Shown here: one piece after another, positions 3,001 to 43,644 of the stretch | Position numbering within the stretch: the first letter of the stretch is position 1 | Layout: the number at the start of each line of letters is the position of its first letter | Assembly: GCA_008632985.1 (NCBI GenBank) | Contig: QPGO01000037.1 | Span: 434,001 to 498,000, forward strand | DNA from: Psammoneis japonica | Taxonomy: Eukaryota | Direction: 5' to 3' | DNA length: 64,000 nucleotides | Program-made: the position numbers and the translations under genes | The notes under the pieces: generated by a model | Databases searched by the model: none | The model's input: the letters and a program-made list of their open reading frames with translations, nothing else | Told to the model about the DNA's origin: nothing

Positions 3001-6000
3001 TGATCCTTTGCTGAGGCGGATACTTCTCGATTTCGGATTTCGGTCTCCATTTCTTCTTTCTGCCGACGAACAGCCTGGAGTTCCTGGCTCATGATCTGCA
3101 CTTCCTTCTCTCGTTCCGCGCGAAGTCTCTCTAGCTCACTAATCTTCTTTAGAGCAGCCTCTTTGTCAGCCTCGCTTTCAGAAAGCTGGCGAAGTCGTTC
3201 CTCGTTGGCATTTTGTACCTCTCGAAGTCTCGAAGACTCTGATTTCGCGTTCTGCAACTGTTCACGCAGTTGCAGAGCCTCTTCGGTAGACATGACTGGG
3301 TCGGCAGTACGAGAGAGAGTACTTAGCTGCGCCTCTTGAGCTTCTCTCTCCTTCAGTGCTGATTCGAGGTTCTGTTCTGCCATCGAAAGGGCGCCACGAA
3401 GCCGTTCTACTTCCATGTTCAGGGCAGTCTTGTCTTGCTTAAGCGCTGATACCTGCCCTGATAATCCGGAGTGGTGTTCAACTGCCTTTGCCATCCATTC
3501 CTGAGCCGCTTCGTTTGAAGCTTTCAGTTCAGAGATTTCTTCCGAATCTTTCTGAGCTTGGGCGAGCTTACTCTCTAAGTCAAGTATAGTGCTGTCTCGA
3601 CGACGAATTTCTTCGCTTTCCCGTTTCACCGCATCCGTGAGCTGCTGGTGCGCAACTCGAGCTTCATCTTCGAGACGAGAGACAGTATCTCTCAATGGTT
3701 GCAGTTCTTGGCTGTTTTTCGCCTCCGTCACGATCCTTTGTTGCAAGGACTCGACCTCTCTCTGGAGCATTGCAACTCTTCGTTTTTGAGGCGGCGAGGG
3801 CGTCCCTCTCTAGGCGAAGTTGTGAAAGGGCAGCGACATTCGCGTCACTAACGCTGGATTTGTTGTCGCGTAGGGACTTATTCTCCATCCGGGTACTGTC
3901 TAAGCCCCCTTGCAAGGCATCGACGGTTCGTTCTAGCTCTTCGCGCTCAGTCTTGGATTTTGCCAGAGAGTCCATCGCCGAAGCAACGTCTTTTTGGCAA
4001 CTCGCCAATTCCGCCTCTAGCTGCTGAGTGCGAGCGAGATCATGGCGCGTCTCATGGCCAGTGACTCCGGCCAACTGCTGTTTCAAGGCCTCATTTTCTT
4101 GATGCATGGATGCATTCTGGCCACCAATTTCTTCCATTCGCTGCATGGCCATTTTCATCCAGTTATCCGCAGCGACAGCTTCAGAGCGAAGACGTGCATT
4201 TTCATCGCGTAGCGTGGCAACATCCGATTCAACACGAGAAGATGTCTGCTGTTGCGACACTTCTCCCTCGGGCTGGTGCCCGGGTGCAGGAGGCATGGAA
4301 GACTCGGACCTTTCGCCTGTTGGAGCTGCCGTTGCCGTTGAAGGGGCGCCAACGCGGCTGTTATACTCGGCTTCCAGAGTGTTGTACGCACCACTCAACG
4401 CTACCATCTCTTCTCGAAGAGAATCGCGTTCTTCCCTGGCTTCCCTTTCCCGATTTTTCCATTCCGTCAACTCGCGATGAACGGCCTCCAGCTGTTCATC
4501 CTTCGCCTTGATCCGCGACTGCTCTTGCTCCTCCTTTTGGCGAGATCGTCCTTGAGAGTATTCACAGTCGCGTTTAATTCTTCGTTCTTGGAGGTAAATT
4601 CAGTTAGCATTTCGTCTAACTGTGTTGGATTGCTTGCAACTCTTCGCCTCCAAGTATTGAGTTGCTCTTCTTGAGACTTTATCGTGGCTTGTGCAGCTGC
4701 TAGAGACTCCTGCAATCCCATCAACTCAGCAGACTGCTGGACATGAGTCGGCGCAGCGACTTCACTCCTCCTTCAACAAAGACATCACCTTCTCCTTCCT
4801 CGTCATCATCATCTTCCGTAGACTTTCCACCCGAAGTGAGTTCATGGACAACTCGCTTTCGACCGTGTGGACTTGCGCCTTGTACCATGTCTGAAAGATC
4901 TCTTCTTCAAGCTTACAGGCCGACCACGGGAGAGATGACTTATCTTCTCGCTTTAGCGACTCGAGTGCGGCGGTGTATCCACTATACCTTTCTTTCGATT
5001 TGAAATCATGGAAAGAATTCCCTGCTTGGTCCATCCGCCATACTCGTCCTCGGATCCTTCCGTGGCAATACCATCCATGGCCAAGCCCAACAAGAGACCG
5101 GCAAGAGTGGAGACCTTGGCCTTGTCGGCACTAGTTTTCTGAAACAAGACACCCAAAGATGTAATGTAGGTGGAAAGCAAGACCGCCTTGACAACCGCAG
5201 GAGTGTCTTGCATCCATTCGCAAACAAAACGAAGCAAAGCCAGAGCAATAATGTCATCTTGATTTTCCAGCGACTGGAAAATAGCATCCAACAGATTCAG
5301 TGGCGCCGTGATGCGAAGAAGCATTTCACGTGTCGTGTCTCCGGCGACAGTAAAGAACAGACCGAGCGCGCCAAGGCTGCCCAAGAGATTGATTCGTCTT
5401 CGTTCCAGCATGGCATTGCCTTCTTCGGGAGGCGCCTCGAGGTTCTCCGCCACGGTATTCAAAAGTTTCTGAACAACTGTAGGAGGTTCGTCTTCACTTG
5501 GTGGAGTCATTGTGTGACCCACCAAGAGACAGGCCTTTTCCGCAGTCAGGGTGTTGCGAAGGACGTGAAGAGCCGATTGAGAGACGGCGAGCTTTTCGTC
5601 CCACGTGGTGGCGGTAGCTCCGCCGCCGGTGCAAACCAGATAAAGCAGTCGATCCAGGCCGTTGTGGCGTGCCATCGTTTCCTCGTCATGAAAGCGTGTA
5701 GCCACAACCTGGAGTGCACGTTGTTGCAAAGCCGCAGAAGGCATGGCACATGCTGGGTCGGCGGCAGGTGGCGGTGGGGAGACAAGTGCAAACTCCCATA
5801 CCAACGAAGACAATGCCGGATGCTGTTTCCAAATAGTGCGTTGATGGTCTGAAGTCGAAAGCAGCAAGTCTAAAACATCAAAGACATGCTCCAAGACTTT
5901 TTCCTCCTTGTCGGTGAGTCGTGGAGTAGGAGGTTTCGAAGACGCAGCTGAATCACCACCCTTGAGGATATCATCCAGATCATCCTTCACTTGCACAACC

Positions 6001-6806
6001 GGCTTGGGAGGATTCCGGAATTCCGTACCACCTCGCAGATCCAACAGAGCGCTCAACTTTTGAGGAAACGTTGCAGCGCTGCTGCTCAAGACCAAATCGA
6101 CCGAGGACGCCGGATCGTGCTTGAGGAGCAACCGACACAGCTCCAAACAATCTTGTACTACAACATTGCCTCCCGTCAAACCACCTTCAGACAAAGCTAA
6201 TCCCAGTGCCACATCACACACTTCACAGAACACCCAAACTTTGGCACAGCTCGGCCACGTGGCAATCGTCAATCCCACCAGCAAGGCTTCGTTGCGAACT
6301 TGCTCGTCTGAATCCGACAGCAGATCCGCAAGTCTGTGCAAGCCATTGGGGGTTTCCAACAATTGCTGCTGCGCCAAGGTTGGAGACGACTTTGAAATTT
6401 GTTCCAACACTTGCAACGCCAAGACGCGGGCATAGGAATTTCCAGAAGACGACGAGGAAGAATGATCGGTGGGAGTCACGACATCTAGCAGCGTCTGTAC
6501 AAGTTTACCTGGAGGAGACGGTTGGTTCAATAGTACTTGACGTGCGTCACGCGACGCTGACGCAAACAGCTTGAGATAGACACGACATGCTAGCGCCGGA
6601 CCCTCTTCGACATCAAAGCCGTTTAATTTTCCTTCCAATACGTGCAAGAGCGCTGTAAGGAGTCGGTCATCGTCCTCGTGTTGTCGCGTGATTTGATCTG
6701 AAAGCTGCTCCGATTCTAACAGCGCTTTGAGCGAGTCGACTGCGTCAGCAGCGCTGCTGGCTGATACGAAACGATCTATAAGAATATCGGCGGATGCTTC
6801 TGCCAT
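1..6806 (-). CDS. USO1: Uso1/p115-like vesicle tethering protein (armadillo head + very long coiled coil); 3' end runs off the window
   Basis: ORF 4953-6806 has the p115-head-like motif 'QQQLLETPNGLHRLADLLSDSDEQVRNEALL'. Downstream minus-strand ORFs (4762-5034, 4467-4724, 3664-4470, 2859-3770, 2129-2695, 1662-2195, 943-1617, 821-1033) are continuous E/Q/K/L heptad coiled coil. They are joined by GT-AG introns at 2129-2208, 1599-1684 and 1075-1175 plus several 1-nt frameshifts. Confidence 0.8.
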
Positions 6807-7130
6807 GTTTATTGTGTTTTAGTTTTGTATCAACGCGACGACGATGGCCTTTTTAGCACCGGCACACCGTCATTTGCAGATGCCAGAGGCGACTGCAAAA
6901 TTTTGAGTCTTTGGACAAGCTTTGGATAATGCCAGTACTGAATAACGTAGAATTCTACGGTACGTCACAGTGTGCCTCGATGGTGGCAAGATCGCGGGGC
7001 GAAGGACAAACCATCACTCTCAAGCAACAGCTCGATCGCGCGTGCGCGCTCGGCCGGCTTGGTCTCGCCGTCATCTCGTCTGACATCATCTTGAGACAGA
7101 AGATGCATGATGGGATGATGGGCGACCACA

Positions 7131-8119
7131 ATGAGAGGCGCTTGTCTGAAGGCGTTGGTAGACCTTGAGAACATTCGAGAGGAAGGCAGAGTGAGAATGA
7201 AGACAAACAGCATTCCACCGCCAGCTGACAACAACGTCCTTCTTGCTGTGGCAAGGGTGCGAAACGTCTTCACAACCAGAAGAAAGTGCGCGTGCAATCA
7301 AAGTCGACTGAACAAAGGTGGGTGGGTGACCATTTCCATCGGCGTTGCTCAAGAGGAAGTCAAATGGAGAAATGTTGTGTGGGTGCAACAAGATCAGGCC
7401 CATGCCATTCTTCAGTTGGGGGTGACGACATTTTGTGCTGATTCGCACACTTGCACACCTGGGAGCTGGGGAGGAGCTTGTTGATCCCACAGAGCCCCCA
7501 GCAGACGTCCAAGATCTTTCCTCATGGAAGCCAGTTGCTCCTGAAACTCTCAACACCCAGCTCTCCTTGCGCGATGCAGCTCAGCTGCATGCTTGCCTGT
7601 CTCAGGTTTGCAAGCGCTTCAAGAACCTTTGCGACAAAAATTTGGCTGGGACTCCAGGTCCTGGATGCCAACCTGCACGTTTTTTCTTGGTGCAAATGCT
7701 TTCCTTGGCTGACTCGCCATTGCTTGTTGCTGTGGAGCATCAACTTCCATCATGGGGTTCTCCATGACAACATGATCTTGGCCCACGTTCTTGAACAATG
7801 TGGTGTGTCAAAGCCAGCAACCTTTGCAACTTTGCCCAAATCCAGCCCTGGAGACTTTGACTGCAACTTTTCCTTCACTTCAAGCTGGCGCCACGCTTCC
7901 TTGTTCTGTCAGAATCCCTGTGTTCCAGGATCTGGCATGATGGCATCAGATCCAACAATGTTTGACTTGCTTTCTGTTGAAGATCAAAGACCCCCAGCTT
8001 TGCTTTTACAAATGGCACAGCAGTGGTGTGGGTTTGCTGGTCATGTTCTCAACAACTGCAACATTGAATCAAGAGGACAACTGCATGACATTGTTTGTGG
8101 AATGTGCCCTGAAGGTTGA
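7131..8119 (+). pseudogene. Decayed protein-coding remnant of unknown family, followed by the piggyBac-like MITE
   Basis: Frameshifted, protein-like segments such as 'LIRTLAHLGAGEELVDPTEPPADVQDLSSWKPVAPETLNTQLSLRDAAQLHACLSQVCKRFKNLCDKNL'. His/Cys occur where Tyr would be plausible (TAY->CAY/TGY). Confidence 0.4.
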
Positions 8120-8178
8120 CACCCCTGTTGTGGGGGGAGACACAGGCAGTTGCTGGTGCAGAAAAGAGACAATCTTAA

Positions 8179-8657
8179 CCCTTTAACCACCGGACTTGAG
8201 CAAATCTCCGTGGGTGGAGATTTGCTTGCTAACATCACAAACACAAAAAAAAAAAAAACATTCTCAGATGTGCACAACAAAGAATTTGCACAATTTTGTT
8301 TTGGAACGTGCACTCTCACCGAAAGCTCCATGGGGCCATTCTTGCAATTTAGAAAGTTCAATGTTGACTTTTAACACCGGGTTTTTGCATGCTTCATCTG
8401 TGGACAGAGAGGAGCTAAATCATGATGAGTTGCCATCACAACAGAGCACTGAATGCAACACCCTTGGAGCACATCTCCAAAGGTGGAGATTTGCTTGCAA
8501 TGAGTGAATGCATGTGGTGTGTTTTACATGGATTGCACATGATGTGACATTTTCATGCTGCGCACATTGTGCCAACATGCGAAAGCATGACACGTCACAA
8601 TTCCTCAAGTGGGGCAAATCTCCACCCATGGAGATTTGCTCTGTGGTGGTTGAAGGG
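8179..8657. mobile_element. piggyBac-like non-autonomous element (MITE, 479 bp), decayed
   Basis: TTAA (8175-8178) is followed by left TIR CCCTTTAACCACC. The right TIR GGTGGTTGAAGGG (8645-8657) matches 12/13. A 28-bp subterminal inverted repeat (8198-8225 vs 8614-8641) matches 27/28, with a third partial copy near 8467-8498. The right flank reads TCAC rather than TTAA. Confidence 0.75.
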
Positions 8658-11600
8658 TCACATGTTTGCCTGGTTTGGCAGGAGGTCAACGGAAGAAAGC
8701 CTCTTTGGCTCAGCGGCATTGTCTGCTCCTTCCCACTGATTTGGTTGCTCTTTACGACAACTGGAAGTTCACTCACATGTGTGAGCTTCAAGTGGAATCT
8801 GAAAGCTTGCAGCACATTGACGTGGGTCATTCCAAGTTTGTGTGGCTAACTCACTGTCAGTGTCCAAGGCTTTGACAACTTGTCTGTGTCGGCGGCCATT
8901 GTGGAAATGGGGTGCGACCATCACTTGAGAATGGTGATCTGGACACAGACGCATTTGGAGAATTCTGAGCTGGAAGCACTCATTTTAATGGAGATTTGGT
9001 CATGTGATTTAGGAGTGATTCATCCCTCCATTTTCCAGGGTTGTTTGTCCCTGATTCCTGTTTTGCACTTTCATGCTGAAGAAGAACTGGCTTTGTCAAG
9101 AGCAGCGCAACAGTGCTCTGACCAAATCACTGCATTTTGGATGAGTTGAAACAGAACAGTGCCCTCATGCAACACATGATTAGATGCAGTCAAACAGCTG
9201 AAAATGATGAAAATTGTTCATTCTGGGGAAATTTTGGTCAGTCTGGGGTGTTTCACATGGAACAGCAACAGAGCTGCAAACAAGAAAGGATTTGACTCAA
9301 TGAAAAAACAAAAACCCACGTGCATCATTTGGTGGTTGCTTCTGGAGTCTGCTCTCTCCTGAGACTCATGTGAAAATCCCAAGCCCCAGTCATTTTTTTC
9401 ATGCCCTGCTCCTCACAACATGGGCTGGTCTGTTGACTTTGCCGCCACCCACCTGAGCATGCAAAAAGGGCAGGTCATCAAATGTCTAACATGCAAAAAA
9501 GACTGGTCAACAAATGTTTTGACAATTGCGTCCTTGCTTCTTGAAATGGAAGCAGGATGTGCCACATTGAGAGGCACATCACAGCCCTTGCTGCTGCCCA
9601 TGCTGGTGGTGTGACATGGCACGCCAATTGAGGCCAGTGCCCCCAGATGATTTGTGGGGCAGAAATCGAGCACAAGACACTCCACAGCAGCACCAACAAG
9701 AATGGTGGTTGAATTGGGGGGGGGGGCTCATGCTGGGCTTCGGTGACTTGGATCACTTGGAGGAACCATCGCTGAGTTGGTTGAAACAAAGAGGATGAAG
9801 ATGAGTTGAAAACAACAAAAGGGAGAAATGAGAGAAGTGCCATGAGACAGGCCACCCTGAGGACAAAGGAGGAAGAGGGAGGTGAGTTCAGCCCTCAAGC
9901 AAAAGCAGAAAGAAGTTGGCTTTCCATGTCAGGATCTAGCAGCCAGAAGACAACAACTGCAGCCTGCAAACAGCTGCAAGCACAGCCATGACAAGCTCTT
10001 TCCATCTGCCATTGGCATTTCTAAGAAAAAGAAGCTGGCAATGCTGTTGCACTGGTGCTGAAACAAGGTGGCAGAAAGGAGTGGAGGACCCAGATTGTCT
10101 GGGTCAGGGACAGCACTGAGGTTGACTTGAGGTGTGCCCTTCACACTGCAGGACATGGTGCCAACCAGCAAGCAAGTGGCTGCATTTGTCACCAAAGCAC
10201 AGCTTGAAGATTTTGCTGTTGCCTCAACAGTGCCCTTGGATGCCAGCAAGGCTAAAGAGGAGACACTGTGGCAACAGCAAGTGGGCAGTGGCTTTGGGCA
10301 CATGGCAGCAGCAAATCTGGGCATGTGAACCTTGCTGCTGTCCATTGCTTGAAACATGCCCAAGACACCACACCAACTGCCTTTGACAGGAAGCATGTTG
10401 GCCATCCCATGGCATCTTCCAGGAGCACCAGCTGATGCAAAATGGGCTGTTTCATCAACTCATGTGTTGAAATGACACCATCACTGACCTGCCACATCTA
10501 AATCAGTTCACACATTTGTTTCTGTGTTGCACAGATTTGCTTCCTCAGCAACCTTGCATGTTGAGTTTCTGTGGGGCATCAAAGCCCTTCGAATGCAACC
10601 AATTCATTTTAGAAGAAATGTGCCACAGCTGTTCAATTCCTTTGTTGCTGCACATGTGTCATTTTCACTTCACATTGTTGATTGGCTCCACTTCCACTGT
10701 CACAACATCAATGGGTGGAAAGCACTCTTTGTGTGATCCAAAAATTTCACTGTCAAAGTTTGTCAAGTTGCAGATTCCCAATGAACAGTTGCTTGCACAA
10801 CTGGAAGTTTTTGTTGACACTCACAAGGACAACCATTTGTGTTGCAATGCAATTGGACCAATGAGAATGGGAAATGAAGAACAGCCACTTGTTTGGGCAC
10901 ACTGTGGCAGGTCTTTTCAGTGTGCCAAAACATGTGCAACAAACAAAAGCAAAATTGTTTTGGTTTCACATGTTTGTTCCCAAGTTGGGTGACAGCCGCG
11001 CTGCGCTGTGCCATTGGTGGAGATGGAGATGTGCCAGTGACACCTGCAGCATGGGCAACAAGTGCAGCAATGGCCAGCTGAAACTCAGCACAGTCAATGA
11101 TGCAATGGGCACCATGACATCACAACTCAGCATTGCTGAAGTTGTTTGGGCTTGAGCAGCTCATCTTGCAAAATGATGTCTTGCAGCATCAAAGAAAAAT
11201 TCCTGGCAGACTGGAAGTTCTGGGCATGCATCAAAGTGCTCATCTTTGTCACCTTTGGCAACCAACTTGTGGACCTTGAAAGGTGGCATGGTCTTGTCAT
11301 TTGCAGCTCCCTCTGAATCTAACACCTTGCACTTGTTCAATTGCTTGATCTTCAAATGATGACACTGTGGCAAGGTGCAGGGTGTCAAATTGACACAGCC
11401 ATGCATTGAGCACACTTGGGCCACCTCATGGGTTTGGGAACAAAGACATCCCAGGGGAGTTCAGGGGTGAATCTGGAGAGCTTGTTCAAGGTGGACAGAG
11501 AGCCATCACAGTGTGCACCAATTGCACAGGCAATGGCACCCCAATGACACAGACAGCTGAGTGGGGCAGCTTGCACTTGAGATGGCAGCAGCAATGCAGT

Positions 11601-13673
11601 GGTGACAGAGGATTGCCACCAGCGCCAACTGGCCATGGGATGCCTTCCCAAAGCATGGCAGAGAGCAAAAAAATGGGACTTGAGTGGGGGGCAGAAGCAA
11701 CTGCAAAGAGGCTGAGAGGCACCAGTTCAAGGACATTTGGAGCAGGCTCAGAGGTTGCATCAAAGAACTCACCATCAGAGTTTGCGGACTTGTTGGGCAG
11801 TGATGGATCATCCAAAACATCATTGGAGCCCTCAGGAAGCATGGAGGACAGAAAGAGAATGATGGGTGGATTGTCTCAATCCAGGTTGTTGCAAGCATTG
11901 AAGCAGTCACTGCAATCCCCAGCATCCTCAGGCAAGTTCCACCACCTCAGACACAAAATTGCATTGCTCCCTCTGGGATGGCAGGACCAGCACAAATGAA
12001 AACACACATCTCAAAAGATCAGTGGCACTGGCACTGTCTCTCCACAATTGGGCAACAATGGAGCCCTGTCCAAACTGGCCCCTCCTTCGACAGCAGAGAA
12101 TCAAGGGATCACACACTGACCCCTTGAGAGAATCACCATCCTTGGACTTGGCATCAGGCTTGACAGCAGACATGGGGTTGGCATTGGTCTGAGCTGGAAG
12201 TTCAGCTTGCATGCCAGAGTTGAGATCAGCTGTGGAGGTGATGTTTGCACCCAGCAGCTGCTCCTTTTTTGGTGACTTGTTGGCACAGCCAGGATTGCTG
12301 TTGTGATCCCAGCAAGATCTGCCAGCTGGGTGTGTCAAGGAGGCTTGCCAGCCAACAACTGTTTTTGAGTGGGCAGCTTGTAGAACTGCACACCAAGTGA
12401 AGCTTGAGGACAGTCAATGGCAAATGTGCAGAAGACTTGTGACATTGTCATTTGAGAGGTGCAGCCCTTGATGGATGGGAGAGGCACAAAGAAAAGTCAA
12501 AGAAACTTGACCCAGGTTTGGAGTTGAAAAACAGTCTGACAATGGCAGGTCAAAACAATGAAACAATGCTCTTCCAGGACCATGCAGATCAACTCAGTGG
12601 TGGCACACAACAAACAAACACAGGGCTGAGGATTCTTGTTTTGACAATCACAGGAAATGCAGCAGCTCAACCACACGTGACATCGTCTGTTGTTGTGACT
12701 GGAGATTGATGCAGATTGAGAGACAATGAGACCAATCAAAAATGATGAATGAATTGCTCATTGGAGACTCCTTGAAAGGCGCTTCTGGTGGCGGGGTGGA
12801 ATGTGCACACTCCTTTGTTGTGAGGAAGCCGGGGCTCCCAGGAAGACACAGTGGTGTTGCTTTGCAATGCAACAGCAGGTTGCTCAAGGTTGCAACAGTG
12901 GTTGACATGAATGCAAAAGTTCTTGCTGGAGAAATCAAGTTGCTGCAAACTGAGCAGAGACCAGGCAATCATCATTTTTCTTGTCACAATTTTTGCAAGG
13001 AGAAAAAATGGATTTGATGCCAATCACATCAGACACCTGTTTGTGGCCCACATGTGGGCCGCAAATTTTTTTCAAATCTTCAATGACAGAGACAATTGAT
13101 GAACAGACCCTGCAGTTCAATTCTCCATGCCCGAAAACACAGGAATCAACACTTCATCTGTTGAGAAAGGCCCGCTGGTTGTTGTTGTGGCCTCTAAAGT
13201 GTGCTTGTGTTTTTGCCCAATTTTTTGCCATTTTCTCTCTCTGCCATGGCGGACCCTGCAACTGGCCCCACTGGGGAAGGATGTTCACTCCAACAACCTC
13301 AGATGCCTGACAACATTGTTGGGGAAATGCTCTCCATGTGTCAGAATTGCTTGCAGCAGGAACAGACATGACTTTTTTGCCTGTTCAAGACATGCCATGA
13401 AATAATTTGTTGCAGTCTGCTGCCAAAGCACCATCTGTTCCTGCACATGCCCCCCCCAAGTCTTCCTGTGGAGGCACCAGTGGCCAAGAGAGCTTGAGCA
13501 TGATTCAGCACTGCCAAACAAAAGTTGATTGTTTCTGATGTGAAGCACGCACATCCTCAACACCATCTTTTGATCACACTCTTGAGGCAATGTCAACCTG
13601 CATGCCACAACTGATTCAATGGCTGCTTTTGACATTGGCAAGTTTCAATTTTTAAGAAACATTCTTTGGACCT

Positions 13674-13791
13674 CCTTCACAACAGAAGCAGAAATGCCAG
13701 AGGTGTGACACAGCAATCTTCGTTGGCATGCCTTCACAACAGAACAAGCAGAAATGCCAAAAGTGAGACATGGCAATCTTCATTCTGCATG
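13674..13791 (+). repeat. Two-copy ~57-61 bp tandem duplication
   Basis: CCTTCACAACAGAAGCAGAAATGCCAGAGGTGTGACACAGCAATCTTCGTTGGCATG is followed at 13731 by CCTTCACAACAGAACAAGCAGAAATGCCAAAAGTGAGACATGGCAATCTTCATTCTGCATG. Confidence 0.85.
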
Positions 13792-16700
13792 CACACAATT
13801 GGACCACTGCATGATGATGGTTGCAGTGCTTGTGATGTTGTTTCACACTTCCTTGCCTGGGGTCCAAGCCGAGTTGTTCGTTGTGGCATGCCTGCCCATT
13901 GTTGACATGTGCTGGGCCATTTCGGTGCTTGGTGCCTGCTTGCCACAATGTTCAATGACTTGAACAGAACAGCAGCAAAAGATGACAACTGCAAAGGATG
14001 CATCATTTCATCATTGAGAAGGGTGTCGCTTGTTTTGAATCTCTGTTCTTTCATCATGCCAGCAGAGCTTTCAAGGTGATGCAGGCATGACACCAAAATG
14101 ACTGTGACTTTGATGCAATGACTCCCAATGCACATGTGTGGGCTTGAGGGTTTGGGGGGGAGCTGGGGCTCCCCAGTTTATTTCGTCTGGCAAGATGGGT
14201 CATGAGCCAATGCCATGGAGGATGATGTGCCTGTTGCGGATGACTCATCTGGCGAAAGCAACCGCCACTGGTTTTAGGCTGTGTGCCTCTTGCCTTGGTT
14301 CAGCTGTCTTCTGGTGAAGCCGGGCAGAGTCTTTTCTCTGCTGAGGAACTTGCTCAATGAGAATCAAGAGTTCTCTTGGACAAGATCATGCTCTCTCTCT
14401 CTTTCTTGCATGCTCAAAGCAGCTCAACACTTTCAAAACAGCCCAGTTTGTGTGATGACTTTCTCCAAAAACTGGGCCCCTGCTTTTTTTGTCAGGGGGA
14501 TTCCCCTTTTCACTGCAAAGTGCTCCACAATTTGCTCTTAAAAAGAAACAGTGAGAACAAAATCATTGTTCTTGTGACATCACACACTGGAAGCTGTGTG
14601 GAATGTGTGCATGACTCCTCAATGCACAACAGCTCAGGATTGTCATGCAGCACAGTGGTGTTGATTGTGTGCTGCCAGTCACAGCAACCAGCTCACACTC
14701 ACTTCCACCACACTTGTGCCCCCCCCCCCCTCTCAAGCAAATCTGCAATCTGCAAGTGCATGAATGGCTCAGTGCTGGAGACTGTGAGATGAATGAATTT
14801 TGTCCAGCACATTTCCATCTGAGAACTTCAGCTCTGAAGCTGGCAGCACCAGATGCACCCCAGTGCTCTGCCCACTTTCATGGGTGACCACATGTCAGCC
14901 AGAGGCTCCAACCTTCCATTCTTTGTTGGCATCACTTTGTTTGCATTGTTGGCTTTGTGCCATCAAGTGTTGGGTCTCTTGCCAGAAAGACATGAAAAGT
15001 GCTGGTGATGAAAGGATGAGATCTCCATCATTGCAAGTCCAGAGTCAATGATCTGAGTGCCAAAAGCTTTGGCCACTGCAGTTGCCATTGTTTTGTTCAG
15101 CCTGCTGTGCTTGTCACAATGACACATCACACATGTGCATTGTCTGCTGGCAGCAAACCAAACATTGTCAATGTGACACTTCCATCACAGAATGAGCACA
15201 CATGGTGCCAGTCTCTGAGAGTTGGTTTGATGACATTCACTGCCAGACACAGTGCATCTTCCATTGAGTTGGGTGTCACCACAAGTGTGAAAAAGAAATG
15301 GAGGATCTCTCTCAGAGCACACAACAAAACAGCTTTTCAGCCTCCTGACAGCTTGCAATGACACAAAGTTTGCCATGGACACAATGTTTTGAGACAAGAG
15401 GGAGCCAAAAGGAGAGTGTGTTGGCAGAGATCAACAAAGATGCCTTCGCAACTGTGGCAGGCCATGAAATGTCTTTTGACAAATGATGTCTGGAATGGGA
15501 CAGGGAACATCAAGATGCAGTTGAGAAATTAACTGTTGAAGGTGGGGACAAACGCCAACAAAAATGTGCATGAGGGCAAAAGCTGCATGCAGCACATCAT
15601 TCTGGCAAGAAACAACAAACAAAACATTCAATGGCATTGCCTTCAGATTCTCTTTGCCATGAGGAGCCATCTTCATTTCCTTTGAAAAGCAGCATTTGAT
15701 CTGCTGTGGAGTGCAAAAGCACTGCTCAAGGGAGAGCAGACAAAATTGTCATGTGCTTCTCACCTTTCAAAGGTCAAGGCACAGTCAGCAGCGTCGCACC
15801 CATCTTCTCCTGCACTTTCATCTTGAACAGGAGCGCCTTGGCCAGCTTCGTGGGAAACACATCAAGGGCTCAGCATGTGTGAGGGTTGGGGTTTCCTTGG
15901 ACAAAAATGAAAAATGTCTGCAAGGACAAACTCAAACTGTTTTTTTGGGTGCACTTTAAACTTGACTTGGAAACACCCCCAGTCTCAACTCAAGAGCTGA
16001 CTCCAACAACATTGTGGTCGACTTTTCCACCAGAGTGATTTTTTCATTGCCACACAGAGTCACAAAGGATTTCCTCATGTTGGTTTGAAATGAAACAGAT
16101 TTTTCATCATCTTTGATGGATTGTAGACAAGGCATCTTGTTCTGACAGGCTTTGACTGCAGGAACACAGAAAATGTTTGCTGTTTCTCTCTGTCTCCCGT
16201 GAAACTCAAGTTCTCTGAGTTCCAGCAACCTCTCAGCAGCTTTGCTTTTGAGCAAAAACTGTGATGAGGTTGGGTGTGGCTTTTCCAAGCTTGATGAGCA
16301 GTGATGTTGCCAATGTGACTCTGGCTGCTGGTGAGCTGCTCCAACACACAGTCGTGTTAACAGAGTTGTTGTTTTTTTCATCATCGCTTTTTTGTTTTGG
16401 TTTCTCCTTTGCAGGGGCCCCACACTTCTGCCTCAAAATGAGCAACTGGTGCCATGTCACACTCATTTGGGGACAGAAGATGGGAGCATCACATTGACAG
16501 CACTTGCTGCACACAGGCATTTCATCATCCTCAACCCCGGCATCACCTTGCCTTGAGGAGAGCGATGCACTGCCCTGAGAACAGCAGCAGCTCCATGATC
16601 TCTGTGTGGCTGCTCAATCTCAGCACCCACAGATTGGACTTGTTCAGACATCTGAGATGCTGTTGCAATAAGTGCTGTTGACTGACAAAAAGAGTGGCAG

Positions 16701-17412
16701 CAGCAGTGATCAAAGCCAGCACTTTGTTGTGCCCTTGCTTTGTCGTGTGCAGCACGTGTGCTGTTGAGATGCACCAGCACGTCTTTGTTTTCAGTTTGTG
16801 CCAGTGTTTCACACAGAATCCTCTCATCTTTTGACTGGATGATTTTTGGAGCAAGGCATGTTCAGAGTTGTGCTTTGGGACTTGGGCAAAGTGGATGATT
16901 CTTGGGGTGTGCATCATGCAATTTTCGGCAGATGGTGAGAAGAGCGACAGTTAAGAGACCAGCGGGAGGGGGTCGATTGCCTTTTGTTGCTCTCTGATGA
17001 CTCTTCTTCCTCCAGTGTCTGATGCACTCTTGGGTGAGCTCTCTGGTTGGTTGTGGCGTACAGCACAACGTTGATGAAAGAAAGGAATGAGCTTGTTTTG
17101 CGGCTCTGTCACATGGGGCGAGGTGCTCCTCATGCGGCAGATGACGACGAGACTGCTCACTCTCCTCGAGCGAGCGCGCCGAAAACAACGTGAAACAACC
17201 AGCCACGCACCTCGCGCAGGGGGGGGGGGGCACAGGGCACAGGGCACAGACCAAGTACTTACTTCTACCAGGTGCTGTACATAGACTACCGTACCGTACA
17301 GTACAGCGCATACATCGTCCGTTGAAACTGATCCGTTCAACGCTCGCTCTGCACAGTCGTTGGAAATCCCTCATCCCTCCAAACCTCACTCACAATTCTG
17401 TGAATCCTTCAC

Positions 17413-18016
17413 TAGGGTTTTCGATCGTAGGGAATTCCTTATTCGACCCTGAATTTCCTTAGATGAGGAAAGATGAGGAAACCAGATAAGGAAAAGTTAA
17501 TTATCGTGATTTACCACGTAGTTACAACTAACATGATCCTTTCATCTACTCTAGCGGTCGACGACTTGTCTCTAGAGTAGAGCCTGTAACTACTAATACA
17601 CTTCAACACACTACTGTACATTCAACGAGTAAGGTAGACGCCATTGGGCACCACAATCTTGGGTCCAAAGAGACAACATGCTTCCATGTTATCTTCCAGC
17701 CTGTTCTTTCCAATCGAGTCCACAACAAGCTCAAGCTGGGAGAAGAGACTTTCAACAGATGCACTTGTCAATAAGGAGCTCCTTGTGCTTTCTCTGGCTA
17801 TCCATACCCTCATTGTCCATCGTCGACAACGGCTCATCACGCACGACGAGTTCGTTCCGTGTGCTTTTTCGCTCATGGTAGCGCGCAGAAAACACGCGCA
17901 GCGTCACAGCTGACGTCATAATCTACGTAGGATTCTACGTGAATCTTAGTACAAAGATTTTTCCTTATCTTCTTCCTTGGGCTGACCACTTCCTTACCGT
18001 ACGATCGAAAACCCTA
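17413..18016. mobile_element. Non-autonomous hAT-superfamily DNA transposon (604 bp), recent insertion
   Basis: Perfect 17-bp TIRs TAGGGTTTTCGATCGTA (17413-17429) / TACGATCGAAAACCCTA (18000-18016). Perfect 8-bp TSD TCCTTCAC (17405-17412, 18017-18024). Subterminal TTCCTT(A)/AGGAAA repeats are present. Confidence 0.92.
17667..17768 (-). pseudogene. Remnant of a hAT transposase C-terminal dimerisation domain
   Basis: 'TSASVESLFSQLELVVDSIGKNRLEDNMEACCLF' resembles the hATC motif S-S-A-x-V-E-R-x-F-S and lies inside the hAT TIRs. Confidence 0.6.
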
Positions 18017-18308
18017 TCCTTCACTGTAACAGCTAAACTCTTTATCAGTCCAAATGCCCATGTAATGGTTGTCAACTAGTTCTGGCTGCTACTAGCCCGG
18101 TATGTCAACACACTCTCTCGCCTTCCCGCCTTCCCGCCTTTTGATGTTCCGCCAACAACACAAAAAATTTGGCCGAATGCGTGAAGCGTGCCGCGTGCCG
18201 CCCTCACAAATCAGTTTGTCTGCATTCACTCCATGCCTGTAGCTGGATTGTTGCTGTTGTTTGGCGAAGATTTGAGACTTTCACTACATTTCAAATCGGG
18301 AGAACATC

Positions 18309-20117
18309 ATGTTCATTGAGAAAGCCGAGGCGCTGAAGCAGGAAGGCAATGAGCTTTTTCGCTCAGAAAAATATGCGGCTGCTCTGAAGAAGTACAAGCA
18401 AGCGATCAAGCTTGACCCTTCCCGCGCCATCTACTGGAGCAATGCTGCATTCTGCCACGAGAAGATGCGGGAGCTTTCAGATTGGAAAGATGCTGCATCT
18501 CGATGCATAGAACTTGATCCGAGCTTCATCAAGGGATATTATAGATTGGCATCTGCTAAACATTTTCTACGTGAATTCGAAGACGAATTTGATGTTATCG
18601 AAAGAGGTCTTGCGATTGAACCAGAACATCCTGAACTCCTCCGGCTAAAGGAAAGAGTACAAGCCTGTCTCGAAGAACGAAAGCTGTACAAGAAAAAGAG
18701 AATTGTAGTTCCAGAGTCAGATCTCCCATTCCTCGTGGGGATACGAGAGGGTTGTCAGCCCTGCATACCATCGGGCACGGCGTACGCGCAATATCGTCGA
18801 CCCCGACTCCCGCCACCTGCTTCCAAGAAGGACTTGAAAGTTTCCAATGGTGAGAGAGCCAAAAAGGCATTTCAAACTTTTTACGACGGAGAGTTTGAAG
18901 TGGCATGGCTCGAAAATGAGGATTCTTTTGAATACGAGGCAGTTTTGCCTAACGATCCTGATCCTCACCCCGTCATTATATGGGAAATTTACGTAAGAAA
19001 AAAAACTCGACTTATATCGAGGCTCACCACAATGACAAATCAAACTTATCAAAGACTTCTAACTGGAGATCAGAAGAAAAGTCTCGCCTATCGCATCGCT
19101 CATCGAATTTTACGACAATATGGAGCTCATCTGCAATCGGAAACGGTGCGACGTGTCGTTGACTGCCTCGATGGCTTCTATCTCGAGAATCACTTATTCA
19201 AGGATAGCCTTGATCTTAAGTTGATCGCATCAGATATAGCTTGCAATAATCGCAGGTCAAATGCTCCACTCAAGGTTGTTTTCTTTGCCGAAGCTGTGGA
19301 GGCAGCCAAAAATTTCGAGAAAGCGGCACACATTTACCTCGATCTCGCGAACGGGAAGTTCGCAGCCTATCCTTCTGTCTTTGAAGAAAGAACACATGGA
19401 TATGCAGCATTGGCCTTTAAGCGTGCTGGAGATTACGTCAATGCGGAAGAACAGTATGTTGCATCCTTGCGGGCAGCTGGCAGCTGGCAACTGGATAGGA
19501 AATCAGAAGCTTACAAAAACCTGCAAAATATGATGATATTTTATGAGATTGCTCATCGTGCTGTATACTTCAAACTGAAACACGATTCTGCGCACCAAGC
19601 TATGCAGAATTCATGCTTTTTGTTGATCGGATTATTGTCTATTGCCGGGTTTGAGGGAAATGGTTGTACGCTGTTTGAAGACCCCGGGTGTTATCAAGAC
19701 CTCTTGAAACCTCGGTACAAGTGTCAACGAGAAGCTCTTCGAGCTGTAGTAGCTGCGACGCAAACTCCCAGCCTCCAGGAATATCACAGAATGCTTTTCA
19801 GCTATAAAGACAAGAGGATTGAATTATTTTTCATGCCGAGTGATAAACAGATCTGTATAGAAGATGAGCAACGGGAGTTTCGACGAGAACAAAAGGAGAA
19901 ATCAAAAGGAGGCGCGAGAGATCAACGATTTTCTTATGCGTATGTGCAACGAAGTCAAGACGTGCAACACTGTACCTTGTGCAGCACAACTGCTTCAGAT
20001 CAAGATGGTTCTCTAATGTTTTGTCCATGCCACACCGTTAGATATTGTTGCAAGGTGTGTCAAGTGAAAGATTGGCCACAACACAAAAGAGTTTGCCCCC
20101 ACCACAAGAAGAAGTAA
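18309..20117 (+). CDS. TPR-repeat + MYND zinc-finger protein (602 aa)
   Basis: N-terminal STI1-type TPRs ('AEALKQEGNELF...YKQAIKLDP...YWSNAA...GYYRLA') and a C-terminal MYND finger ('CTLC...CPCHTVRYCCKVCQVKDWPQHKRVC'). Uninterrupted ORF. Confidence 0.88.
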   Translation: MFIEKAEALKQEGNELFRSEKYAAALKKYKQAIKLDPSRAIYWSNAAFCHEKMRELSDWKDAASRCIELDPSFIKGYYRLASAKHFLREFEDEFDVIERGLAIEPEHPELLRLKERVQACLEERKLYKKKRIVVPESDLPFLVGIREGCQPCIPSGTAYAQYRRPRLPPPASKKDLKVSNGERAKKAFQTFYDGEFEVAWLENEDSFEYEAVLPNDPDPHPVIIWEIYVRKKTRLISRLTTMTNQTYQRLLTGDQKKSLAYRIAHRILRQYGAHLQSETVRRVVDCLDGFYLENHLFKDSLDLKLIASDIACNNRRSNAPLKVVFFAEAVEAAKNFEKAAHIYLDLANGKFAAYPSVFEERTHGYAALAFKRAGDYVNAEEQYVASLRAAGSWQLDRKSEAYKNLQNMMIFYEIAHRAVYFKLKHDSAHQAMQNSCFLLIGLLSIAGFEGNGCTLFEDPGCYQDLLKPRYKCQREALRAVVAATQTPSLQEYHRMLFSYKDKRIELFFMPSDKQICIEDEQREFRREQKEKSKGGARDQRFSYAYVQRSQDVQHCTLCSTTASDQDGSLMFCPCHTVRYCCKVCQVKDWPQHKRVCPHHKKK

Positions 20118-33592: not shown

Positions 33593-36500
33593 TTATGAAA
33601 AACTTATATCGTTTTCGTGTGAAACTGCATTAGCAGCCGCGTCCAAACTCCATCGTGATTTTGATGGTTTCTGCTTCCGCTTCTTTCTCCTTGTAATCCC
33701 GTTTGGCAGAGATCTGCGCCGCTCTAAAACTGATTCCTCGTTAGACTTGACAAACGAATCGTTTTCGTCGGCTCGTGGCCTTTTTCCGAGAGAAGATGTC
33801 TTCTGTCGGGATCCCTCTAGCAGCTGCATTCTGAATGTGACTCGTTCCCGGTGCGCCTTCTCCTTCGCCGAATCTGTCTCTTGATCAAATATGCTGTCCG
33901 CCTTACCACGATCACCCATGATATCTTCGTCAAACGTTGAGTTGCACCGAGGATCGAGTCCCTCGTGCTCTTGGGTGCCTCTCTTCGTCTTTTCATGACG
34001 ACGGTGCTTCGGCTCTTGTATATTTTCACTATATCGACGTAACGGCTTTCGCTTCTGGCTGTCACCAGTAGGTTCAGAAGATGCGTGTTGTCGCCGCCGC
34101 GGGTCGAAGCTGCTTTCTGAGGTCTTGCTCACCTTTTGGTCCCTGCTTTGCGCGTGCGAGTTACGCTTCTTGGAATCACCCGGTCGTGGTATAGAGGACG
34201 AGTCCTTCAAATCTCGTCGACGACTCGTATATCCCTTCTCACGACGATTCTCCAACTCCAATCCGTTCATGCTCCGTCGACGTGGTTTTCGAGCCCTGTT
34301 TTCGTCCGCAGGAGCAAGTTGCTCTCTCCCTTCTACGATGCTTTCAGACTTTCTCCTTACCTTTGGCTTTTGGTTTCGTGCATGCGGCTCTTGTCTAGTC
34401 GATCCACTCGTTCGTTGCGAAACAGATGTAGATTCCCTCTTTTTGATTCTTTCATCATGGCCGTGTTCTCGATTCCATGGACGAGATGGCATACTCGCCG
34501 TATTGGCTCTAACTGAGGAACCATAAATGCGCTTTCTATCTAGATCGCCTTCAGATTTTCGTCTCGCTTTGGGTTTCGTACCTTTCTCTATGCCAGGACC
34601 AAGCGTTCCTGACCGTGAACACGTCGCGTTGAAGTTTCCTTCAAACTTTCCGGATACGAGCTATGTCTCCGTCCGTTTACACCCCTATGTACCCATGGCA
34701 GCGGAATTTTGTCCACCGATTCAACAATCTCAACTTTACAACCACGAAAAGCCTGGCTCGGCGGACGCGTTTGGTCAGCGACAAGGGCCCTCGCTTCGCT
34801 CCGAGTATCAACCAAGCGATTCGCTGCACCAGAGTCCTTCGCTTCAACTTGTTCACATCCGCTCCTCTTCGACTTTTTAGTTCCTTGACTGCTCTGTGAT
34901 GCTGGAGCAACAGAGGCGTCTGATAATTGCTCAAGAGAGTCTCGCGTACTATCTGGTTTGCGATTAGGTAGAAGGCGAGAAGATGTCGCGCTGCTGACTT
35001 GTCGGTCATGTTGAGCGTCAAGATTCAACCGCCCCTCGGCCACCACCGTGATATTGCCATTCAATTCATGGTTTGCTGGCTCCAGTGGGTCGTCTTCCGT
35101 TCTCTTCTGTAATGTATGGCTATGCTTACGATTTTTCTTGCTGCTTGAGACACCTAGTTGTTGGTCCTGCTTCTTCGTTGTTGTAATAGGCCGTTCATCA
35201 GCTTCTGCGCTAGACATCGGGTCGTTACTGCCGTTTGGAACCGAATTCAACGATCGCTCGGATGCCTTCTTCTGGTCTTGTTCAGTTTTTGGTTCTTTGC
35301 GTTTTCGAGATGGTCTTTTACTTCTGCCCCGTGCAGTGTCGACTGGCGGCGACAGGGACGATTGCCCCATATCTTGCGCGATCGCCTCCTTTGATGGCTG
35401 CACGTCGCGACCAGGCTCCGACCTTGTTACCGGCTCGTTGTCTCTGCCAGATGCATCCTTTTGTCGCTGCGCCCTGGCTGACGCACTCGTGTTTTCCACT
35501 TGTGCTTGCCCTCGAACACGCTTCCTGCTCGAGTATGGCTCTTTGACTTTTGAGACGATATCGTCCACGGAACGATTGGAGTCAGCTTGAGTAAGATTGC
35601 AGGCCGGACCCTCCCCTGATTTCTCACTAGGGGCCCTATGGCGTTTAGCATGCGAGGGTTGATGCGACGCCTGTACCAGAGTCCCCGCAGCTGTATGCAT
35701 TGCTTCTGACGGGTTTCCACAATGCTCCTTACTTTCCTTGGTCGAGCTGGTTTCATCATTATCAATAGCAGATCCCCGCTGGCGTCCAAGTAACGCCGTC
35801 TTTGACTGCGAAAATGATGCTGCCGTTGGTAGTGATCGGCGAGTGCGACTTCTGGACCGCGGTATCAGCCTGAAATGGTGGACTCGAGGCTGCACCCTTA
35901 CAGTCTCCTGTCTTGGATATCGTTCAGGTGAATGTCGGTTCCTTAAGGGTCTCTCTCTTAGATTTTCAGTCGTATTGTGACGGTCGACTGGTGCTGGAGC
36001 AGTAGCTCGAGAGGAAACTTGAGGACCATTAGGATCTCGATCATCTCTAGACTGTGACTTTGAGCTTTCCGTGTAGACTCGACGTGGCGCTGCCATGCCT
36101 CTCGCTGTGCCACCTGGATCGTCATTGCTAGACTGTGGACAGTCAAGCGCTGCTTCGTTGGAGGTGCGGGTAGTCTCTACCACTGCGGGAATCACCGGCT
36201 CGCTGGTCATTGGATCCTTTCGCGATCCATCCCTCGCTTGCGGTGACGCCTGAAAATCAACATCTTCTTGAGTTTGTTCGGGCTCCACATTATCTCGTAC
36301 TTGTTCTTGGGTCAACGGCATTTGAATTCCCTCACTTTCTGCCGACAATGGCTCGCATGACGACGAATGCTCGTAAGAATCCTGCACGTCTTGATGCTCC
36401 TCCAAAGGTCTATTTCGAGAACCGAAAGCCGTCAAAGAGAGGTTCTGTGCTTGTTGTGGTTGGTGTTTTGTGCGACTACGTTCGACTGGACGAGATGCTA

Positions 36501-37188
36501 AAGCTGAATGTCTTGCCAATTCTCGGTCACACCACTCGGTGCAATCTTCATCGTCACTGGAATCTTCTGTAAAGTAAACCGGCAGATTACCCTCGTACCT
36601 TTTGGCGGAAGAGCGTATAAATCGAACACGCTTTGCTTGAAAATTACGATTCCATTCGTTTGGTAGATGCTTTTCCAATAGCTCTTTCGGTTCACTCTCC
36701 ATCAGGGAATGTTGTTGTTGATTGAGCTCTCTTGTACCACCTCCAACGACCATGACTCGATCGACAGATATTTGGCCGCTCAAATTCACAATCTGCATAG
36801 ACCCCGCTTCTCCCAACCAAAACGGCAAAGCATCAATGTGACCACAGTCTTTCCACTTGTTGGTGTTGCAGAGAATCAACTCGTTGCTCCAATTGATTTG
36901 TTTCAGCGGCGCTACCAAAATGTACGCGTGTCCCTGTTTTTGTATTTCCTTTTTCGATTGCATCCAATGACCGACAAAGGACTTTGTAGCTTGAAAGGCT
37001 GCCACGATTCGAAAGACGTCGTTGTCCCAACGACAAACGTCTCCGACAGAAAACAGAGTTCCACCAAGCCAGAACTGATCAAAGTACAATCGACCCAAGT
37101 CTTTGGAGTATCCCAGAGTAGTGACGCTGTTCCATCTTACCGAAGTCAAGTGTAAGCGAACGCCTTTTGGAAGAGGTTCGTTTGGCAT
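33593..37188 (-). CDS. Large hypothetical protein: globular (possibly BAH-like) N-terminus + long S/R/K/E-rich disordered region; frameshift near 34.6 kb
   Basis: ORF 34588-37188 (866 aa) and ORF 33593-34492 have the same composition and lie in series. N-terminus 'YFDQFWLGGTLFSVGDVCRW...FRIVAAFQ'; basic NLS-like clusters. Confidence 0.6.
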
Positions 37189-42455: not shown

Positions 42456-42792
42456 TTTCGTGTTGTGATCGAATTGTGAGCAGCGTAAAGAAAACAAGTC
42501 TTTTGGACCGCTGACTCATGACTACCACAAAAGGTCATCTTAGTCGTGTGGCTAGACTTTAATTTTTTTCGTTTCGATCTTGCGGGAAAGAAAGGAGTGC
42601 ATCACGCTGATCAAACACGTTCACACATGCATCTTGAGATATAGCACTGGGAGAGAAGATGTCCAAATATTTACGCCCTCGTGGGATCAAAATGGTCATG
42701 GTATCTTCACGCATGCATCATGTACATCTTCGGAGAGTCGTCAGTGCTCAACGGTCGCGACTCACTCAGCGTTCATCATGGTGCAAACTTGC

Positions 42793-43131
42793 TCTAGACA
42801 CCACTTAGTGCTACTCTCTAGTAGAGGTAGCTCCACTCTCGTTAGTACTAGAGGGTACTGTACCGGTACCGGTAGGGCCCTTACAGCAGCAGTAGCTAGC
42901 TAGCTAGCTACTACAGTAGCTGCCATGCTCTCTACTCTACCAGCTCTTGCTCTAGCTACTAGTAGTAGCTAAAGTACTCTACTCTCTATGACAAGAGAGT
43001 TAGTCGAGTACCGGTAGGTACCGGTAGGGCCCTCTACTACTAGTAGAGCTACTAGAGTAGAGAGTACCGGCAGATACCCTACTACTGTAGTAGCTACTCT
43101 CTAAGAGTACATAGGTAGGAGCAGGTAGCTA
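42793..43131. repeat. TA-hyper-rich low-complexity tract built from CTAG/GTAG/CTAC/GTAC words
   Basis: Examples: 'AGTAGCTAGCTAGCTAGCTACTACAGTAGC', 'CTACTCTCTAGTAGAG', and 'TACCGGTA(GGTA)CCGGTAGGGCCC' twice (42861, 43009). Confidence 0.8.
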
Positions 43132-43644
43132 CCAACAACTGGAAACGTGCCTTGCGAGCTCCATGCAACGGTAAAAAATCTTTTGAGTCGAAATGGAGTG
43201 TAAGATTTTAAGTACTTTAAAATAATTATTCAAATAAAAGAATTATTTTATTCTGAATACGAACATTTATGAAATTATTTAGAGGGGGGCCGTTGAGAAT
43301 TTTTTCAGAAAATTTGATTGACAGGATCGATAAGTATTTTTATCTTTGTGAATATAGATAACTATTAAAGATTCTTGGTATTAGAAAGATGTTTGTCCCA
43401 CATACGTTCCCCTCATTCGTTGCGTAAAAGTGTACCATACCAACGTAACGGCAATATTTTGGATGTGTTCACGAAACTTTGACACAACACAAAATTTCGT
43501 AATCCCGCGGGTGTTGACACAAGACAGAGGATCTGTTCGTTCATGTCAACGTGAAGGGAGTTGACACCTTCAACAATTTTTCGAAAGCTTGTCAATTCAC
43601 ACAAATTCGTTTCATCAATAAAATCAATTTATTCACGTACAACC

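Follow-up and report, generated by a model that had tools for sequence, protein, structure and literature searches.

In fungi, repeat-induced point mutation (RIP) turns C into T, chiefly at CpA; it creates TpA, lowers G+C and needs duplicated sequence. Hypermutation in the opposite direction has been described in the chlorarachniophyte Bigelowiella natans, where, of 231 mutations that arose in two integrated viral regions of mutation-accumulation lines, 230 were A→G or T→C (Mettrop et al., bioRxiv 10.64898/2026.01.13.699255, 2026). According to this preprint, all of these GC-biased mutations occurred at TpA and at about 1000 times the genome rate, and the viral region that was their main target is single-copy and transcriptionally silent (bioRxiv 10.64898/2026.01.13.699255). 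Elsewhere in the Bigelowiella genome there are clusters poor in TpA and rich in CpA and TpG, many of which are unannotatable. The authors of the preprint proposed an ADAT2-like adenine deaminase, an enzyme unproven there, and their Discussion also draws the comparison with RIP (bioRxiv 10.64898/2026.01.13.699255). Described here is a stretch of 64,000 nucleotides from Psammoneis japonica (GenBank assembly GCA_008632985.1, contig QPGO01000037.1, positions 434,001 to 498,000), termed the window, which contains three blocks nearly stripped of the dinucleotide TA. These blocks are probably silent, non-coding diatom DNA in which locally targeted conversion of TpA to TpG or CpA has run near to saturation, a hypermutation of the same kind as that of Bigelowiella natans.

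The ratios of observed to expected (o/e) dinucleotides were computed in sliding 1-kb windows across the window and tabulated for each domain. The three blocks, which together make up 27.7% of the window, are termed domains A, B and C:

6962-17255, unstranded, 10,294 bp: domain A, a non-coding block that is TA-free, poor in CG and rich in TG and CA, flanked by two divergent genes
9500-12500, unstranded: core of domain A, with o/e of 0.04 for TA, 0.07 for CG, 1.83 for TG and 1.95 for CA
54428-59608, unstranded: domain B, with the same TA and CG signature in a sequence unrelated to A
61774-64000, unstranded, continuing past the window end: domain C, an intermediate stage in which TA is mostly and CG partly lost

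The original prediction for this DNA, made from the letters alone, held that TA is nearly absent over about 10 kb, that CG is scarce and that TG and CA are in excess. The counts bear this out. Domain A contains 35 TAs, compared to 687 expected from base composition and 381 expected if the background o/e of the window, 0.55, is applied (Poisson log10 P of about −115), and 127 CGs compared to 601 expected, while its o/e is 0.05 for TA, 1.74 for TG and 1.83 for CA. The predicted coordinates of A are exact, with bracketing TAs at 6961 and 17256, and the interval 11322-12380 holds no TA where 60 are expected. The recurrences noted at 54.4-59.6 kb and 61.75-64 kb correspond to domain B (12 TAs against 186 expected, 77 CGs against 308) and domain C (17 TAs against 85, o/e 0.12; 84 CGs against 125, o/e 0.67). 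The CG o/e over A and B is 0.20-0.26, and the depletion of TA is near saturation (o/e 0.02-0.06). Domain C has received about 60% of the dose of A and B. Ranked by length, the first ten TA-free gaps (466-1564 bp) all lie inside A, B or C, and the longest gap elsewhere in the window is 235 bp. Base composition is alike in the domains and outside them (G+C of 0.48 vs 0.47-0.50), AA is untouched (domain/background frequency ratio of 1.05), and TC shows only a small shift (ratio of 0.83). The depletion of TA is thus real, and it is far beyond chance and beyond the normal diatom range.

The blocks occupy intergenic space. No Pfam family was found in the six read-through frames of A, B and C (18 frames), and a Pfam search of 62 stop-to-stop open reading frames (ORFs) of at least 80 amino acids (aa) gave two sub-threshold matches only (Caskin1-CID and F-box). 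The median 3-base periodicity is 1.2 in the blocks, compared to 1.0 in shuffled sequence and 8.2 inside genes; coding periodicity in the blocks is at shuffle level, and none was detected. No pair of long terminal repeats or terminal inverted repeats spanning domain A was found, and no Rfam family or tRNA was found in the window. The three domains are mutually unrelated even when reduced to a purine/pyrimidine alphabet (one shared 28-mer in six comparisons). Of the 25 word-depth bins into which domain A was divided, 14 have single-copy depth and 8 are clearly multi-copy; the former may still have been duplicated in the past, given the heavy mutation. With neither coding periodicity nor a transposon or viral protein signal left, the earlier description of the targets as transposon DNA, and of the process as repeat-targeted, is unsupported.

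The likeness to RIP lies in transition hypermutation that is confined to segments, leaves a dinucleotide signature and marks sharply bounded, degraded, silent DNA, which in the case of RIP is often methylated. Unlike RIP, the process seen here destroys TpA and leaves G+C unchanged, and for most of domain A there is no second copy of at least 80% identity. Therefore, the process is not RIP, which runs in the opposite direction, making TpA and lowering G+C, and requires a duplicate.

The resemblance to Bigelowiella is closer. In both organisms TpA becomes TpG or CpA on both strands, as read here from the signature (mass balance, equality of TG and CA, and differences between duplicates and among reads); discrete regions are affected in an otherwise normal genome, as with the borders of A at 6961/6962 and 17255/17256; and the long-term trace is TpA depletion with a gain of CpA and TpG (bioRxiv 10.64898/2026.01.13.699255). 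The differences begin with the host, which is a diatom (a stramenopile) rather than a chlorarachniophyte (a rhizarian). The o/e of 0.02-0.06 compares to a Rho of 0.45 in the Bigelowiella region derived from a nucleocytoplasmic large DNA virus (NCLDV), and the virophage region there is undepleted. The targets in Bigelowiella are viral, whereas the diatom blocks have no demonstrable viral or transposon origin, and new mutations were measured there, whereas the signature here is historical only. CpG is lost as well in the diatom blocks, and the terms “CpG”, “flanking”, “trinucleotide” and “diatom” do not occur in the main text of the preprint. The preference for RTAY over YTAR sites described below (R, purine; Y, pyrimidine) is likewise absent from that main text, which does not include the supplementary tables.

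The literature searched yielded no account of TpA erasure in a diatom or any other stramenopile, and in it the Bigelowiella preprint is the sole description of the process. The original remark that no enzyme system of this type had been described is nonetheless outdated, given the TpA-only A:T→G:C hypermutation reported in that preprint (bioRxiv 10.64898/2026.01.13.699255). What appears to be new relative to that report is a second major lineage, saturation, superimposed CpG decay and a flanking-base rule that was not found in print.

The edges of domain A separate the loss of TA from that of CG:

6962-7350, unstranded: left edge of A, with one TA (o/e 0.05) and 29 CGs (o/e 1.00), CpG intact
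17057-17255, unstranded: right edge of A, with one TA and 16 CGs (o/e 0.89), CpG kept

At each domain border, the TA process ends over a distance of a few tens of bases. TAs outside A are dense, the nearest being those at 6961 and 17256, and about 197 bp directly inside each border are without TA. Over the outer 200-400 bp of A, the o/e of TA is 0.05-0.14 while that of CG is 0.89-1.00, and the TA-free zone of this domain reaches further out than its CpG-poor zone. In domain C, about 80% of TA is gone compared to about one third of CG. Because the left edge of A lacks TA and has its CpG intact, the loss of TA is independent of the loss of CpG, and the data support two separable losses that differ in spatial extent.

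Loss of CpG in the interiors resembles decay driven by 5-methylcytosine (5mC) in that CG becomes TG or CA, the decay is interior and strand-symmetric, and CpG survives better in G+C-rich contexts. In the intervals 7900-17000 and 55000-59608, CpG survival is 0.51 in GCGC, 0.33 in CCGC/GCGG and 0.27 in ACGT, and it is poorest in TCGA (0.06) and ACGA/TCGT (0.08); CpG flanked by G or C therefore decays more slowly. However, 5mC deamination cannot remove TpA, and the TA-free zone exceeds the CpG-poor one. A second process, slower and spatially narrower than the first, stripped CpG from the domain interiors, most simply by deamination of 5mC in methylated chromatin.

Several features were noted at the borders themselves. 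The right border of A (17219-17311) has a terminal G12 run followed by (CACAGGG)3, and directly beyond it lies a short period-5, GTAC-rich run with 10 TAs in 56 bp. A (CTG)6 run occupies 54440-54457, immediately within the left border of B. The G12/CACAGGG-type motif was not matched at the other borders, and no border motif or target-site duplication common to the domain borders was found. The segment adjoining the right border of A, 17259-18092, is multi-copy (word depth of about 630-670 vs about 64) yet normal in TA (o/e 0.98 for 17256-17700), and its copies differ from the window at TA↔TG/CA sites at 17475, 17635, 18056 and 18064.

The TA process strikes both strands equally, site by site. 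Domain A has 1145 TGs and 1146 CAs, with a runs test of z = −1.4 and a heterogeneity p of 0.87 over 20 bins, and the 559 TGs and 593 CAs of domain B are likewise unclustered. Because TG and CA are equal in number and interleaved, both strands must have been hit. Two candidate routes were rejected on these counts, namely a one-strand RNA intermediate, by the equal and randomly interleaved TG and CA of A, and long processive single-strand tracts, by the absence of strand clustering.

The TAs that survive are a distinctive subset. Among the 47 in A and B, 32 are YTAR, 14 are mixed and a single one is RTAY, compared to 534 RTAY, 894 mixed and 305 YTAR in the background (chi-square p of about 1e-17). 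The surviving YTAR sites are mostly TTAA, CTAA and TTAG. The bias holds when the insert at 8000-9000 is left out (p of about 3e-13), and it is replicated in domain C, where survivors number 1 RTAY, 7 mixed and 9 YTAR. Newly arisen TAs do not account for it, since the CA and TG contexts from which they could arise are balanced (23% RTAY, 23% YTAR). The rule is therefore that a TA is lost if a purine precedes it or a pyrimidine follows it, RTAY being all but extinct, and that YTAR, above all TTAA, is largely spared. An additive model in which the strands are hit independently and one neighbouring base determines the rate on each has four parameters and fits the ten tetranucleotide classes (deviance of 4.9 on 6 degrees of freedom, p = 0.56), far better than a uniform rate does (p of about 1e-17). 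The fitted intensities are 3.2, 2.2, 1.0 and 0.2, and the mixed class lies where an additive effect would put it, at 3.18 vs 3.07 in A and B and 1.88 vs 1.82 in C.

TadA and ADAT2 have as their natural substrate an adenine that follows U (tRNA positions 33-34), which is the equivalent of TpA in DNA. A local mutator that turns TpA into TpG or CpA by A:T to G:C transitions, almost to saturation, would produce the signature described above. Such a process may well be enzymatic, the candidates being an adenine deaminase that acts on DNA and recognises three bases on each strand, or a thymine-modifying enzyme, and it may be aimed at chromatin that has been silenced, whether in genome defence or as an activity tied to heterochromatin. 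By substrate context, deaminases of the TadA/ADAT2 type, from which the laboratory adenine base editors are derived in the case of TadA, offer a candidate chemistry, although such extensive action by the family on double-stranded chromosomal DNA is unproven in nature. The attacked base may be A or T, which are indistinguishable here because TA reads the same on both strands.

The same targeting could therefore operate through other chemistry. 5-Formyluracil mispairs mutagenically, and if the thymine of TpA were oxidised by a TET/JBP-type enzyme to 5-hydroxymethyluracil (5hmU) and then to 5-formyluracil, which pairs with G, T→C changes would follow with no adenine deamination. In a palindromic TA, T→C on one strand gives the A→G products of the other. 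Dinoflagellates have a TET/JBP homologue that produces 5hmU and keeps transposable elements silent (PMC11572971), and early work, as quoted in PMC11071213, reported that 5hmU favours TA and TC contexts. However, the same source gives no sequence preference of 5hmU in Breviolum (PMC11071213), the literature search returned dinoflagellate reports only, with no diatom 5hmU or TET/JBP enzyme, and TC is barely depleted in the blocks (ratio of 0.83). Thymine oxidation is thus unlikely, though it deserves to be kept in mind.

That the TA process worked in place, on DNA already resident, is seen from duplicated sequence, from sequence variants and from the balance of losses and gains. Compared to background, A and B together have lost about 537 TAs and 681 CGs, or 1218 in all, and have gained about 582 TGs and 658 CAs, or 1240 in all. 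The features that record changes in individual copies are as follows:

54598-55013, plus strand: copy 1 of an inverted duplicate in B, 69% identical to 56735-57105 on the opposite strand
56735-57105, minus strand: copy 2, the partner of 54598-55013
8162-8676, unstranded: nested multi-copy element in A, with alignable inverted-repeat arms at 8162-8225 and 8614-8676
9074 and 16759: TG/CG differences between assembly and reads
15793: CG/CA difference between assembly and reads
16670: TA/TG difference between assembly and reads
10410-10411: TG/CA doublet difference between assembly and reads

Between the copies of the inverted duplicate, the commonest adjacent double difference is CA↔TG, with 12 instances, followed by a class with 8, while most classes have 1-3. 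Such CA↔TG doublets are expected if the two copies each went their own way from a shared ancestral CG or TA. Where the arms of the nested element align well, the three substitutions between them are TA/TG, TA/CA and CG/CA. The six single-copy letters at which assembly and reads differ on the long pieces (8631-13093 and 14464-17440) amount to five events, all of which are CG/TA↔TG/CA changes or a TG↔CA doublet; the single difference on the piece 13341-14176 is outside this tally. Together with the distinct extents of TA and CG loss, these observations uphold the original claim of a second, in-place TA→TG/CA process besides CpG decay.

The nested element (8178-8658) is also less depleted than its surroundings, with an o/e of 0.16 for TA and 0.35 for CG, and its word depth reaches 3321, where single-copy sequence stands at about 65. 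A palindromic motif of about 26 nt (GCAAATCTCC..GGAGATTTGC) is found inside the element at both 8198-8229 and 8467-8498 and forms the inner part of its inverted-repeat arms.

These data bear on the possibility that the composition is intrinsic or imported, such that the blocks came from a virus or another genome already free of TA and CG and the host played no active part. The borders are indeed sharp, resembling insertion junctions, and most sites are unpolarised for want of a homologue. An imported composition would nevertheless have to account for three unrelated blocks with three different degrees of depletion, for a nested multi-copy insert less depleted than the DNA around it, and for duplicates, repeat arms and assembly-versus-read variants that differ from one another mainly by the CG/TA↔TG/CA class. 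No genome with a TA o/e of 0.02-0.05 is known to us. Importation is accordingly very unlikely.

The DNA around the blocks provides the background against which the signature is judged. A 992-aa exportin-T ORF in the window has best matches of 40-52% identity, including Cylindrotheca, Pseudo-nitzschia, Nitzschia and Thalassiosira, and the window is diatom nuclear DNA. Its genes are long ORFs, mostly uninterrupted. The two that flank domain A are:

4953-6806, minus strand: left flanking gene, a 617-aa ORF with no Pfam family at E ≤ 1e-5 and strong period-3 signal
18309-20117, plus strand: right flanking gene, with TPR and zf-MYND domains

The start codon of the left gene (6806) lies 155 bp from the border of A. 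As originally predicted, both genes keep their TA, with an o/e of 0.40 on the left and 0.55 on the right. Their RTAY, mixed and YTAR sites number 14, 20 and 8 on the left, where RTAY is not depleted, and 27, 39 and 8 on the right. A further ORF of 866 aa (34588-37188, minus strand) has strong coding periodicity and no Pfam family at E ≤ 1e-5. Over the background interval 17300-54300, the o/e is 0.58 for TA, 0.99 for CG, 1.19 for TG and 1.12 for CA, and in 20.5 kb of non-ORF background it is 0.62 for TA and 1.02 for CG. The window's highest TA (o/e 1.15, at a G+C of 0.42) occurs in ordinary intergenic DNA at 42501-43500, which thereby contrasts with the TA-free blocks within one window. For a baseline from outside the window, 41 loci were taken from diatom-like metagenome contigs near exportin-T relatives (320 kb, 1141 one-kb windows), and the minimum TA o/e among them is 0.30.

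It is clear from these values that the TA process spares neighbouring genes and ordinary intergenic DNA. A genome-wide neutral bias from TA to TG/CA, with the blocks as old, unconstrained DNA at equilibrium and selection retaining TA elsewhere, would fit the shortage of TA in all parts of the window (o/e 0.55-0.62). It does not fit the non-ORF background, where TA stands at 0.62 and locally reaches 1.15, nor the DNA just outside A, where the o/e is 0.73 over 155 bp on the left and 0.98 over 445 bp on the right (17256-17700). At codon junctions, the TA o/e is 0.38-0.77 in all 14 flanking ORFs and RTAY is never less numerous than YTAR, so that the sites most readily lost in the blocks are not depleted in genes. 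Moreover, the transition from one state to the other takes place over tens of bases. It is highly improbable that a general bias made the blocks.

Whether the TA-free sequence is real was checked by comparing the window with k-mer contigs (Logan, k = 31) of one public DNA run. Of the words sampled from 9000-15000, 97% are present in this run, and word depth is 64-67 on domain A compared to 64.9 and 63.6 on the flanking genes. Read contigs differ from the assembly at no letter over 6000-8226, at three over 8631-13093, at one over 13341-14176 and at three over 14464-17440. Contigs of a second run of that sample match 6000-6886 and 18070-18500 on the flanks and no part of the DNA between, from which no conclusion is drawn; a third run gave no match, and no RNA run was listed as containing the stretch. 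A tandem repeat at 13679-13784 in domain A (two copies of 46 nt at 60-nt spacing, 80% identity) coincides with joints and inserted letters in the read contigs.

Long-read base-callers are known to err systematically at methylated motifs, and it may be supposed that modified bases were misread, 5mC as T and modified A as G, in DNA that truly contains CG and TA. The reads may also come from the assembly's own sample. Nevertheless, misreading of palindromic sites should yield all TG from one strand and all CA from the other, whereas a separate k-mer assembly reproduces the same fixed, interleaved TG/CA mosaic at flank depth, with no disagreement beyond 0-3 differences per piece of 0.8-4.5 kb. Because of this agreement, the TA-free sequence is not a base-calling artefact and is taken as real; that the signature is artefactual is extremely improbable.

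ADAR, a metazoan family, and polymerase eta both produce A→G changes with a preference for a 5′ T or A. The 5′ U preference of ADAR is mentioned in the Discussion of the Bigelowiella preprint as well (bioRxiv 10.64898/2026.01.13.699255). ADAR-type A-to-I editing of retroelement RNA followed by reverse transcription, or repair by polymerase eta (WA motif) in heterochromatin, is barely credible as the source of the blocks. Both should hit AA, which stands at a ratio of 1.05; the RNA route predicts changes on one strand only, whereas the TG and CA counts of A (1145/1146) and B (559/593) show no strand bias or clustering; and the Pfam read-through of A, B and C found no reverse transcriptase remnant.

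Several points weigh against the interpretation favoured here, that of a locally targeted TpA hypermutation of the Bigelowiella kind. None of the 41 loci from other diatoms has the TA-free signature, although these contigs are short and the baseline is too small and too gene-centred to rule it out elsewhere. Both the mass balance and the survival rates presuppose an ancestor of background-like composition. The signature is historical, with no new mutation observed, and its timing relative to residence depends on a few polymorphic and duplicate sites. Among related repeat copies there are only 217 transitions against 86 transversions, and many of the differences are not at TA or CG; ordinary divergence is therefore mixed in. 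The reads represent one sample, possibly that assembled or polished, and their library type is not on record. Nothing in the domains indicates a foreign, viral or transposon origin, as judged from the 18 Pfam frames and from periodicity, so the term “defence” derives from the Bigelowiella precedent.

The motif read by the process is also less secure than the rule of survival itself. There is a single RTAY survivor per data set, and the context effect could still be multiplicative (structural). The survival data fit equally well a T-A-Y motif, in which the attacked A reads the next base, and an R-T-A motif, in which the base before T is read. Bulk products in the domain cores favour T-A-Y (413 RCAR/YTGY gained vs 224 RTGR/YCAY), but this asymmetry is confounded by CpG-derived products, and CpG-retaining sub-regions show none (61 vs 50). 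In addition, four RTAA/RTGA copy differences (8506, 16670, 17475 and 18064) oppose T-A-Y if TA is ancestral. Product asymmetry was thus rejected as evidence of strand context, its early support having been lost after the dissection of CpG and the inspection of copy differences.

If the reading of the blocks as hypermutated DNA is true, TpA-directed hypermutation is not peculiar to one chlorarachniophyte but also occurs in diatoms, which are major ocean primary producers, and it can run to saturation. It would stand beside fungal RIP as a second eukaryotic form of genome defence by mutation, working in the opposite direction, from A:T to G:C, and it could account for unannotatable single-copy stretches in protist genomes. 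The rule that RTAY is lost and YTAR spared provides a fingerprint against which candidate deaminases, thymine oxidases and the Bigelowiella mutation list can be compared, and the residual TAs, together with the less depleted nested insert, are defined sites where ongoing mutation may show. More tentatively, diatoms and chlorarachniophytes, and perhaps protists of the SAR group (stramenopiles, alveolates and rhizarians) widely, might share a natural, chromatin-directed A:T→G:C editor that recognises TA plus one flanking base on each strand and erases every accessible TA in silenced or invading DNA. Should such a shared editor exist, the TA-free blocks would be its fossil record, with about a quarter of the window being “dark” DNA made unrecognisable by it, and it would be the first natural counterpart of the laboratory adenine base editors to act on chromosomal DNA.

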